The notes below the pieces were generated by a model. It was not told where the DNA came from, made no database searches, and saw nothing but the letters and a program-made list of their open reading frames with translations. Position numbers and translations under genes: made by a program. From the NCBI GenBank assembly GCA_041666325.1, contig JBAYHC010000004.1, positions 64,929 to 128,928 on the forward strand: a DNA stretch of 64,000 nt. The letters are read 5' to 3'. This document shows, one piece after another, positions 35,514 through 62,645 of this stretch. Source of the DNA: Patescibacteria group bacterium (GTDB taxonomy: Bacteria; Patescibacteriota; UBA1384; XYA2-FULL-43-10; 1-14-0-10-43-13). Positions within the stretch are counted from its first letter, which is position 1, and the number at the start of each line of letters is the position of its first letter.

Positions 35514-35590
35514 TGGTACCGCGTATGGGAGTCGAACCCATGATTTCCGCCGTGAGAGGGCGGCGTCCTAGACCACTAGACGAACGCGGC
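35514..35590 (-). tRNA. tRNA-Glu (anticodon CUC)
   Basis: Hand-folded cloverleaf: acceptor GCCGCGU/ACGCGGU, anticodon stem CCGCC/GGCGG with loop CUCUCAC, T-loop GUUCGACU, encoded CCA. Confidence 0.8.
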
Positions 35591-36420: not shown

Positions 36421-36494
36421 TCCGAGATCGTCTAGTGGCAGGACAGCGGATTCTGGCTCCGCTAACCTAGGTTCGAATCCTAGTCTCGGAACCA
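36421..36494 (+). tRNA. tRNA-Gln (anticodon CUG)
   Basis: Hand-folded: acceptor UCCGAGA/UCUCGGA, anticodon stem GCGGA/UCCGC with loop UUCUGGC, T-arm CUAGG-UUCGAAU-CCUAG, encoded ACCA. Confidence 0.8.
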
Positions 36495-36665
36495 AGAAAA
36501 GAGCTTTCATTGAGAGCTCTTTTCTTGGTTTGTAGGATTCGAACTGGGAAGGGGTCGGGAAACGGGAGTTTCCCGTGTCGGAAGGTTGGGAAACCGAGGG
36601 TTTCCCAAAGCGAGACGTAGAAGCGAGCGCTCGAGATCCTAGTCTCGGAACCAAGAAAAGCACTC
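36495..36665 (+). repeat. tRNA-Gln-linked repeat: terminator-like 16-bp hairpin, shared 31-nt GGGAAAC/GTTTCCC motif (antisense), then a direct duplicate of the tRNA 3' end plus a loop-flipped hairpin
   Basis: GA(A)TCCTAGTCTCGGAACCAAGAAAAG occurs at 36474-36499 and 36638-36665; the hairpin loops agctttcattgagagct and cactctcaatgaaagtg are near reverse complements. Confidence 0.6.
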
Positions 36666-37051
36666 TCAATGAAAGTGCTCTTCTTGGTTAATCAAGACTA
36701 CTCAAATTTGCTCGTATACGTATTTTAACTCGGCCCCAGGACTCAATAATTTCTCCATTTATTTAGTCCTATGAGAGCAATTTTTTTCAATTAAGCGTTT
36801 GGAATCTGCTTGTCTCCATAAATCCAAGCGGAACTCGCTGTAAGCTAGAGTTGGAGCCACAAGGACCTGTTCAAATACTTTTTCCTGAAGCGAGAGCGAG
36901 ATGATATCAGGCGAAAAACAGGAATTGTGAGGAGGAATAGCCAAAAGCTATTATGACAAGCAATTCGTGCTTTGCAGCCGAAATCAGCCGCTCACAGCTA
37001 TCGGACACAAGTGTTTGGGCAGGTCCCAATGCTCGGAAAGGAGGTGAGAAT

Positions 37052-61465: not shown

Positions 61466-61744
61466 TGGTACCCGCGACAGGACTTTCACGTCGCCCTGCT
61501 CCCTAGGAACCCACGGTTCCTAGTGTCCTCCCCTAGCGGGAAACTCCCGTTTCCCGACCCCTTCCCAGGTTCAAACTCTTCATCGCCAGAAAACAAAAAT
61601 CACCTTTCGGTGATAATATAGGCCCCTCGACAAGCTCGGGGTCATTCGACTTCATGCCACGAATAAACAAGAAGGCATTTTAAAATATGGCTTGCCATGA
61701 GCGAAATCCCGATTTATCGGGATGGAGTCGAATGGTACCCGCGA
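61466..61744. repeat. tRNA-Arg-linked repeat: 20-nt direct duplicate of the tRNA 3' end (61466-61485) and intervening hairpin-rich segment containing the shared 31-nt motif
   Basis: TGGTACCCGCGACAGGACTT occurs at 61466 and 61745; CGGGAAACTCCCGTTTCCCGACCCCTTCCCAG lies at about 61540-61575 in the same relative orientation as downstream of tRNA-Gln. Confidence 0.6.
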
Positions 61745-61821
61745 CAGGACTTGAACCTGTGACCTTCAGATCCGCAATCTGACGCTCTATCCAACTGAGC
61801 TACGCGGGCAGACATAGCAAG
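61745..61821 (-). tRNA. tRNA-Arg (anticodon GCG as parsed)
   Basis: Hand-folded: acceptor GCCCGCG/CGCGGGU, D-arm GCUC-AGUUGGAUA-GAGC, anticodon stem UCAGA/UCUGA with loop UUGCGGA, T-arm ACAGG-UUCAAGU-CCUGU, ACCA. Confidence 0.75.
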
Positions 61822-62552: not shown

Positions 62553-62645
62553 TGGCGGAAGGTGCGGGATTCGAACCCGCGTGGCGGCTTTTAAACCACC
62601 GACGGTTTAGCAAACCGTTCCCTTAAGCCTCTCGGGCAACCTTCC
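62553..62645 (-). tRNA. tRNA-Ser (anticodon GCU, long variable arm)
   Basis: Hand-folded: acceptor GGAAGGU/ACCUUCC, anticodon stem ACGGU/ACCGU with loop UUGCUAA, 20-nt variable arm, T-arm GCGGG-UUCGAAU-CCCGC, GCCA. Confidence 0.8.

Follow-up and report, generated by a model that had tools for sequence, protein, structure and literature searches.

A conserved folded core with target-copied arms recurs behind tRNA and ribosomal-protein genes of Patescibacteria

Here we describe a short non-coding cassette that lies just downstream of tRNA genes and other highly conserved genes in Patescibacteria/CPR genomes, and that joins one strongly conserved, covarying folded core to arms copied from whichever gene stands upstream. 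Two copies occur in the 64,000-nucleotide stretch of DNA analysed here (the window), and a wider search places the same core behind many unrelated targets. We give about even credence to the proposal that the family is a non-autonomous integrative mini-element mobilised in trans.

The window contains four tRNA genes by ARAGORN and Rfam: Glu (35514-35590, minus), Gln (36421-36494, plus), Arg (61733-61809, minus) and Ser (62553-62645, minus). A covariance model of the core matches at two loci only, behind tRNA-Gln (83.9 bits) and tRNA-Arg (79.1 bits), with the next best match at 13.6 bits; by this measure two of the four tRNAs carry a module. The tRNA-Arg locus is organized as follows.

61733-61809, minus: tRNA-Arg(GCG), the target gene, with CCA encoded (ARAGORN; Rfam tRNA, 71.9 bits)
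61733-61752, minus: copy A, tRNA positions 58-77, running from the T-loop through the 3′ strand of the T-stem and the 3′ strand of the acceptor stem to CCA (exact 20-mer and boundary analysis)
61645-61732, minus: spacer, first part, a second and unrelated conserved element, TTCGACTCC...CGCTCATGG...GAAGTCGAA, abutting CCA and containing an ATCCCGA/TCGGGAT hairpin
61623-61641, minus: spacer, second part, the small hairpin-like sequence CCCCGAGCTTGTCGAGGGG, which is also nested within the module of another locus (L042)
61589-61614, minus: spacer, third part, the terminator-like hairpin ATCACCGAAAGGTGAT followed by a T-run, immediately 5′ of the 5′ arm
61566-61578, minus: 5′ arm, GAGTTTGAACCTG, the tRNA-Arg T-arm in inverted orientation (9 of 9 exact, abutting GGGAA; duplex energies)
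61499-61569, minus: conserved core, GGGAAGGGGUC, comprising hairpin 1 (61537-61556, GGGA loop), a linker, hairpin 2 (61503-61523) and GGGAG (covariance model E=2e-19; covariation)
61486-61498, minus: 3′ linker and altered T-loop-like junction, CAGGGCGACGTGA, with the family-wide GCGACG and GTGA motifs (family comparison)
61466-61485, minus: copy B, the tRNA 3′ end in displaced or duplicated form, with native DNA after it

A sequence-only reading of this segment had drawn attention to a 20-nt repeat of the tRNA-Arg 3′ end. The repeat TGGTACCCGCGACAGGACTT is real and exact, with precisely two occurrences in the window (61466-61485 and 61733-61752; none expected by chance), but the tRNA copy starts at 61733 rather than 61745 and the spacing is 267 nt rather than 279 nt. 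Among the small hairpins noted in the same reading, CTAGGAACC/GGTTCCTAG (61503-61523) proved to be hairpin 2 of the conserved core; ATCCCGA/TCGGGAT (61706-61723) is likewise real and belongs to a different element in the spacer; and CCCCTCGA/TCGGGG (61623-61641), described as perfect, is only partially self-complementary. In the 5′ arm, TTGAACCTG is the exact reverse complement of CAGGTTCAA, and the remainder pairs through G·U. The pattern of the first spacer part also occurs directly 3′ of a tRNA-type CCA end at three other loci (L008, L100 and L112), and the native DNA beyond copy B includes a promoter-like box that is conserved with a Saccharibacteria locus (L011).

The tRNA-Gln locus has the same layout on the opposite strand.

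36421-36494, plus: tRNA-Gln(CTG), the target of the second copy in the window (ARAGORN, Rfam)
36477-36535, plus: copy A, exact over 25 nt (36477-36501) and continuing into a diverged version of the trailer hairpin
36533-36544, plus: 5′ arm, TAGGATTCGAAC, reverse-complementary to the tRNA-Gln T-loop and T-stem at 12 of 12 positions
36543-36611, plus: conserved core, with hairpin 1 at 36556-36575 and hairpin 2 at 36586-36608 (covariance model E=1e-20)
36612-36635, plus: 3′ linker and altered T-loop-like junction, ...GAAGCGAGCGCTCGAG
36636-36694, plus: copy B, exact over 25 nt (36636-36660) and continuing into a diverged version of the trailer hairpin

Both tRNAs therefore show the proposed arrangement of tRNA, motif and 3′-end duplicate, tRNA-Gln with its own exact 25-nt repeat. 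The motif TGGGAAGGGGTCGGGAAACGGGAGTTTCCCG is shared exactly over 31 nt (36545-36575, plus, and 61537-61567, minus; none expected by chance) and has the same orientation relative to each tRNA; the description of it as antisense is true solely relative to the plus strand, since the two tRNAs lie on opposite strands and the motif is on the own strand of each. When the two loci are aligned in tRNA orientation, similarity extends over a block of about 70 nt. It is not limited to T-arm-like sequence: a non-tRNA core of about 70 nt is common to both loci. At the Gln locus, a long palindrome with the terminator-like hairpin at its centre spans copy A, spacer and 5′ arm, an organization also seen elsewhere (L017 and L058).

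To define the extent of the family, we scanned one genome per species with an exact pattern for the core hairpin; all family counts below come from the matches listed. The core is present in at least 118 genome stretches, and by record titles the listed hosts are almost all Patescibacteria/CPR, including Saccharibacteria, Parcubacteria/Paceibacterota and Moran-, Kaiser-, Berkel-, Falkow-, Uhr-, Curtiss-, Wolfe-, Yonath-, Zambryski-, Nomura-, Harrison- and Colwellbacteria. A few listed matches carry automated bin labels of 'Bdellovibrionales' or 'Gammaproteobacteria', which may be wrong. Several MAGs among the matches listed have two or more loci, with up to three copies within 8 kb and tandem arrays. 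Further tRNA-adjacent copies were readily found: a same-strand tRNA lies just upstream in 83 of the 120 core matches listed, representing 32 anticodons, and within 300 nt upstream of the core the listed matches have 101 same-strand tRNAs versus 0 on the opposite strand. Setting aside the tRNAs that recruited each locus, about 15% of bystander tRNAs in the listed loci also carry a module. The element is non-coding and about 110-270 bp in size; all of the roughly 130 copies examined are small, with a tRNA-to-core distance mostly of 23-110 nt.

The shared core consists of a closing helix and three hairpins separated by purine-rich linkers. On the gene strand, the family consensus begins with a variable 5′ arm, (N)GGGAA-GGGGUC, hairpin 1 (CGGGAAAC-loop-GUUUCCCG) and G-UGGAGGAAGG, sometimes followed by an inserted hairpin; it continues through hairpin 2, which has a variable outer stem and a conserved AACC-GWG-GGUU apex, and ends with (A)GGAG, a variable hairpin 3, (C)GACG(AC), an altered T-loop-like junction (GTGAGAT, CTCGAGAT or GTTCNTAT) and a variable 3′ arm. 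One sub-family has hairpin 2 replaced by GGGGUGAC...GAGGGCGGAAGCCCUAUAGA. In a model-based alignment of 83 copies, 93.9% of cells are paired versus 86.3% in shuffles, and none of 500 shuffles reaches the observed value; changes on both sides occur in 13 of 16 pairs, and every slid control is far worse. The scan pattern fixed the hairpin-1 stem and left its loop free, which bears on covariation in that stem; in copies without the exact search motif, hairpin 1 shows compensatory changes, whole base-pair insertions and a G·U pair. Rfam 15 gave no match to the core: tRNAs were the only hits above gathering threshold in the window, and searches of both loci in E-value mode returned nothing relevant. 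A core segment of about 40 nt is almost invariant across deeply diverged lineages. The window is itself CPR DNA and is syntenic with the Saccharibacteria MAG locus L011 (tRNA-Arg(GCG), module, M16 peptidase), where flanking genes share about 55% amino-acid identity. The two loci agree at 45 of 47 nt (about 96%) in the 5′ half of the core, their differences in hairpin 2 are compensatory, and the surrounding intergenic DNA is barely alignable save for the promoter-like box near the downstream gene. Purifying selection therefore acts strongly on the core, imposed either by the host or by recurrent selection at the level of the element.

The arms of the cassette are copied from its target. On the gene strand the order is fixed: the gene end (copy A), a spacer or terminator, an inverted copy, the core, the altered junction, a direct copy (copy B) and then native downstream DNA. 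At 59 of the 83 tRNA-linked loci among the matches listed, 12 nt or more of the tRNA 3′ end recur without mismatch after the core. Copy B starts at a nearly fixed point in the T-loop, taking in 18 nt of tRNA if CCA is encoded and 15 nt if it is not, and its end varies from the tRNA end to at least 39 nt into the trailer, sometimes including the terminator; the duplication has a fixed start, a variable end and a length of about 10-75 nt. Copy B lacks CCA where the gene lacks CCA, indicating that it derives from DNA and not from mature tRNA. An 18-nt repeat beginning near position 59 had suggested a retro-copy of mature tRNA or tRNA-primed reverse transcription, and the missing CCA together with the inclusion of trailer sequence rules this out. 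Adenine mutagenesis of the DGR type was also rejected, with 37% of mismatches at A against an A composition of 29% and no reverse transcriptase cluster.

The inverted copy is equally specific. In 77 of the 83 listed loci, the 5′ arm lies 0-3 nt from GGGAA and is the reverse complement of the 3′ part of the same tRNA, with a median of 14 and a maximum of 23 identical nucleotides. Of the two direct copies, A is the better match for the arm at 71 of 78 listed loci, and median pairing energies are -26 kcal/mol for arm and copy A, -17 kcal/mol for arm and copy B and -12 kcal/mol for a shuffled arm. Pairing with copy A is better because the T-loop-like junction of copy B is always altered. Two targets that seemed not to be tRNAs resolved into a tmRNA gene (L104) and a tRNA gene split by a group I intron (L022). 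The sequence-only reading thus underestimated the scope of the element, which spans the superphylum with a strongly conserved covarying core and has the inverted target copy as part of the unit.

Protein-coding genes are targeted as well. Among the matches listed, the module occurs at the 3′ end of rplL (8 loci) and at L11-like (L077 and L109), L33-like (L029) and S9-like (L078) genes and a uvrB-like C-terminus (L095), where the L11-, L33-, S9- and uvrB-like names were assigned solely from C-terminal peptides and rplL also from neighbour clustering; in one further case (L076) the module lies in a 5′ UTR. L076 and L078 come from one MAG and are identical from GGGAAGGGG to GAGCGACGACG with different arms, an identity that delimits the element proper. 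At ten protein-gene targets, the same C-terminal peptide is encoded twice, by copy A and by copy B, down to the variant particular to each species. Across 90 codons the two copies differ by 46 synonymous versus 4 non-synonymous changes (p=3.5e-24 relative to random change), and 49 of 55 nucleotide differences fall at third positions. Measured in related loci, as the window targets are tRNAs, this pattern is the signature of a surrogate 3′ end. Phage 21 and e14 supply their target gene icd with a replacement 3′ end and show the same synonymous pattern. Codon usage of copies A and B did not tell native from foreign.

The architecture suggests how a mobile mini-element of this kind might operate. 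The cassette lies a short way within the 3′ end of a gene that is very conserved and highly expressed, with the site in tRNAs falling in the T-loop at about positions 54-59. A small unit of copy A, spacer, 5′ arm and core would enter through one crossover at the repeat's left edge, providing a surrogate 3′ end and pushing the original end downstream, where it becomes copy B. Copy A and the 5′ arm can form a hairpin with a stem resembling the target duplex, and the conserved core would serve as a handle for a recombination or replication factor supplied in trans. Strand exchange between such a folded circular single strand and the chromosome would yield the observed order and orientation, leaving an irregular junction at the putative crossover and an arm still matched to copy A; the better match of the arm to copy A is as expected if the two form one hairpin.

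That the element is recurring, as first proposed, is firm, with target-derived repeats in most of the stretches that carry it; that it is mobile or recombinogenic is supported indirectly, by the many different targets including protein genes, by identical elements at two sites in one MAG and by the surrogate-3′-end signature. No integrase, transposase, reverse transcriptase or other recurrent gene was found near the at least 118 copies; the window loci have housekeeping genes as neighbours and no recombinase nearby. Viral, phage and plasmid collections yielded no copy, and neither a free form nor a phage- or plasmid-borne parent was found. For strain comparison, the sole other contig retrieved was an ENA metagenome contig identical to the window, and no empty site came to light. 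Several observations count against integration. The same-site module in relatives with flanking proteins about 55% identical, and the eight rplL loci, can also be read as long vertical retention of an RNA useful to the host; a single recombinase acting on dozens of unrelated target sequences would not be classical integrase behaviour; and integration gives no account of how an element acquires the direct and inverted copies of a new target.

The main rival, unlikely in our estimate, casts the module as a structured RNA that acts in cis and serves the host, placed in the 3′ trailer or 3′ UTR of transcripts for tRNAs, tmRNA and ribosomal proteins. Pairing of the 5′ arm with copy A or with copy B would give alternative structures, and the core would bind a protein or ligand and set the choice. 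That choice would govern how the upstream RNA matures, how stable it is or how RNase III/RNase P process it, or would free a small RNA resembling a tRNA minihelix. The strong covariation of the core favours such a role, as do its G·U pairs on the gene-sense strand only, the constant placement of the module on the strand of the upstream gene, and the retention of the module at one site across deep divergence, its 5′ half almost unchanged, in genomes that are very small. The two arm pairings are far stronger than shuffled controls, and at some loci (L021 and L018) the arm and copy B reproduce an acceptor/T-stem minihelix exactly. Yet a terminator-like hairpin with a T-run separates tRNA and module in about half of the tRNA-linked listed loci, and a promoter scan of the window returned no convincing candidate. 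Only some tRNAs bear a module, Rfam 15 holds no match, and pairing of the arm with the 3′ half of its own tRNA would harm that tRNA. A cis-acting RNA also leaves unaccounted for the duplication of gene ends at many unrelated genes, the tandem arrays and the identical elements at different sites.

Whether the core folds as RNA or as single-stranded DNA bears directly on this choice. Hairpin-1 loops are GNRA in 86 of 120 listed copies (72%), as a functional RNA would favour; the others include GNYA (n=21) and CNNG (n=6), and cGNNAg fits 107 of the 120 listed copies. The motifs cGNNAg and cCNNGg form stable DNA loops, and the GCGAAGC mini-hairpin is exceptionally stable as DNA. GCGAAGC is 19-fold enriched on the sense strand, and typical RNA tetraloop hairpins are not enriched; the loop motifs and this enrichment are hints of single-stranded DNA folding, and the terminator-like hairpins that precede the module at about half of the tRNA-linked listed loci point the same way. 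The G·U pairs of the core, valid solely on the gene-sense strand, are equally compatible with RNA. Wobble pairs are asymmetric in favour of G·T over A·C (33:16 and 47:31, the hairpin-2 count being confounded by a 1-nt bulge), which mildly supports folding of the sense strand without separating RNA from DNA. If the cassette is mobile, the folded strand may be DNA rather than RNA. Two further structures were discarded since variants do not conserve them: a pseudoknot of the 5′ linker with the loop of hairpin 1, and a G-quadruplex in GGGAAGGGGTCGGGAAACGGG. Rfam contained no ribozyme or other known family matching the core.

An origin that needs no dedicated enzyme is improbable. Template switching during replication could generate the module if a terminator hairpin folds back and copies the gene end in inverted form, synthesis then switches into a donor core and finally returns; spread among CPR bacteria would proceed by natural transformation and homologous recombination, with the gene body and copy B as homology arms, and the core would be kept since it promotes uptake, recombination or fork stalling. 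The long palindromes of copy A, terminator and 5′ arm centred on the terminator loop (window Gln, L017 and L058) fit such an event, as do the absence of a mobility gene near the listed copies and the targets, all of which are among the most conserved sequences of the genome. CPR bacteria also possess competence machinery. However, template switching does not account for a near-invariant segment of about 40 nt across the superphylum or for the helix covariation, and an 18-nt right homology arm is marginal for RecA.

Tyrosine-integrase elements classically leave direct repeats of tRNA 3′ ends that begin in the T-loop, and the window repeats have this form. A decayed prophage or integrative island, with attL and attR left after internal deletion as a CIME-like relic, is nevertheless very improbable: no integrase fragments were seen, all of the approximately 130 copies examined are small and have the same conserved covarying core, and independent decay would not leave the same 70 nt. 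Still more remote is a pseudo-tRNA fragment or chance T-arm-like similarity, as the 5′ arm and junction do hold T-loop-like sequence but the core has no tRNA similarity by Rfam or ARAGORN, matches exactly over 31 nt where no such match is expected, and recurs at non-tRNA genes; the conserved covarying core effectively excludes both of these explanations. Dual-guide RNAs of the TIGR or IS110 bridge type were considered and rejected. TIGR dual guides match adjacent, non-overlapping stretches on opposite strands (PMC12045711), whereas the arms described here are fully self-complementary copies of one stretch, and no Nop-domain, RuvC-domain or other associated protein was found.

CPR genomes are tiny and have little room for junk, and the cassette nonetheless stands behind tmRNA, several ribosomal-protein genes and a sizeable share of the tRNA genes in CPR bacteria. 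A mobile cassette would be a compact gene-free element that restores the gene it enters and apparently serves many targets with one core, pointing to a trans-acting recombination system not yet known and perhaps offering programmable insertion a natural template. As a functional RNA, it would instead represent a new and widespread class tied to tRNA and ribosomal-protein expression in a major, poorly understood branch of bacteria. Either way, the family is relevant to the annotation of CPR genomes, to tRNA gene prediction, in which partial tRNA copies can appear, and to the reading of 'att-like' repeats.

Searches of Rfam 15 and of the literature by sequence and by concept returned no description of this family, which is apparently previously undescribed, and comparison with known systems places it among several. 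Like tRNA-targeting integrative elements and CIMEs, their derivatives that have no integrase, the cassette has direct repeats of the target 3′ end that begin in the T-loop, leaves the tRNA gene intact, since it is completed by one of the copies, and forms tandem arrays, and like phage 21 and e14 at icd it has copies at protein targets that differ almost solely at synonymous sites, so that a surrogate 3′ end preserves the product. Unlike those elements, it has no tyrosine or serine recombinase in or near any listed copy, measures only about 110-270 bp, includes an inverted copy of the target and serves dozens of unrelated targets with one core conserved across a superphylum. The folded single-stranded attP of CTX phage mimics dif, and the cassette resembles such IMEX and integron attC sites in that inverted target-like sequences about 70-120 nt apart can fold into a site-mimicking hairpin that is irregular at the presumed crossover; the order predicted after single-strand exchange of the CTX type (target, element, inverted arm, loop, target) matches the cassette, and its loop motifs hint at single-stranded DNA. 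It differs in targeting tRNA and gene ends rather than dif or attI, in having no replicon or cassette ORF, and in that its intervening 'loop' is its most conserved part.

With REP, BIME and REPIN sequences and Correia, ERIC and MITE-like repeats, the cassette shares being short, non-coding, hairpin-forming and multi-copy, lying after genes and often by terminators, with any mobilising enzyme encoded elsewhere. Those families are species- or genus-specific, bear inverted repeats of their own, and make target duplications, if any, that are short and of fixed length; the arms of the cassette, by contrast, copy each local target and differ between identical cores, with no shared terminal inverted repeats and no duplication of fixed length as in a MITE, and its core is conserved across CPR. 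As in plant mitochondrial t-elements and MALAT1 mascRNA, the arm and copy B of tRNA-linked cassettes can form an acceptor/T-stem minihelix 3′ of a gene, but the cassette also occurs at protein genes with no tRNA-like helix and has the T-loop replaced by a core of about 100 nt. The family thus shares features with integrative elements, IMEX/attC sites and REP-like repeats, and fails the defining features of each. Tentatively, and with considerable doubt, we propose that it may represent a new class of mobile element or a CPR-wide functional nucleic acid in which sites are chosen by target mimicry around an invariant folded core. If such mimicry operates, one machine reading the core in trans could address any conserved gene end, perhaps with the cassette as folded single-stranded DNA, making this a re-targetable integration system free of protein genes and peculiar to ultra-small episymbiotic bacteria.

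A second conserved element lies directly 3′ of tRNA-type CCA ends at the window's tRNA-Arg locus and at three collected loci, L008, L100 and L112. Further sequences touching the tRNA-adjacent modules (5′ arm, folded core, junction and copy B, the direct duplicate of the gene end) occur in the window as follows.

61645-61732 (-), window copy of the second conserved element
61623-61641 (-), 19-nt sequence in the spacer between tRNA-Arg and the 5′ arm
36488-36532, trailer hairpin after copy A, the intact 3′ end of tRNA-Gln
36647-36691, trailer hairpin after copy B at the same locus

The second element runs in the order TTCGACT[CT], a hairpin, CGCTCATGG, further hairpins and a closing helix, formed in the window copy by TTCGACTCCAT paired with ATGAAGTCGAA. 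It has no sequence relationship to the main core, and the four copies among the loci covered are divided equally between positions behind real tRNAs and positions behind copy B of a main module.

The two trailer hairpins of the tRNA-Gln locus have stems in common, and their inner parts are mutually reverse-complementary (AGCTTTCATTGAGAGCT versus CACTCTCAATGAAAGTG); the tip of the hairpin appears to have been inverted.

Six loci (L020, L023, L001, L021, L097 and L012) carry record titles naming Gammaproteobacteria, Bdellovibrionales or Bacteriovorax. Modules from loci with these labels are approximately identical to Moranbacteria or Paceibacterota modules, with L021 and L028, L097 and L019, and L012 and L099 as examples of near-identical pairs; this would reflect either mislabelled bins or recent transfer.

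The 19-nt spacer sequence, CCCCGAGCTTGTCGAGGGG, recurs identically, as a nested sequence, inside the optional extra hairpin of the L042 module. Similar sequences are present in L024, L106 and L113, and variants of the form CCCGAGC-N(4)-TCGAGGG are found elsewhere, some of which look to be within coding regions. Dispersed among the CPR loci is also a perfect 20-nt palindrome, CCTGCCTGCCGG(C/T)AGGCAGG, with single sites in L001, L009, L070 and L100 and two each in L007 and L067. It lies within the main module in L001 and L070, within copy B of a tRNA end in L067 and, apparently, in other contexts as well, and it looks like a separate family of tiny insertions.

In a Harrisonbacteria MAG (L022:4761-4971), the tRNA preceding the module is split by a group I intron, scoring 62.4 bits in Rfam, so that intron and 3′ cassette are combined in a single tRNA gene. 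Two near-identical Saccharibacteria tRNA-Ile(TAT) loci, L038 and L039, differ by an insertion of about 65 nt within hairpin 2 of the conserved core in L039, demonstrating that the module tolerates nested insertions.
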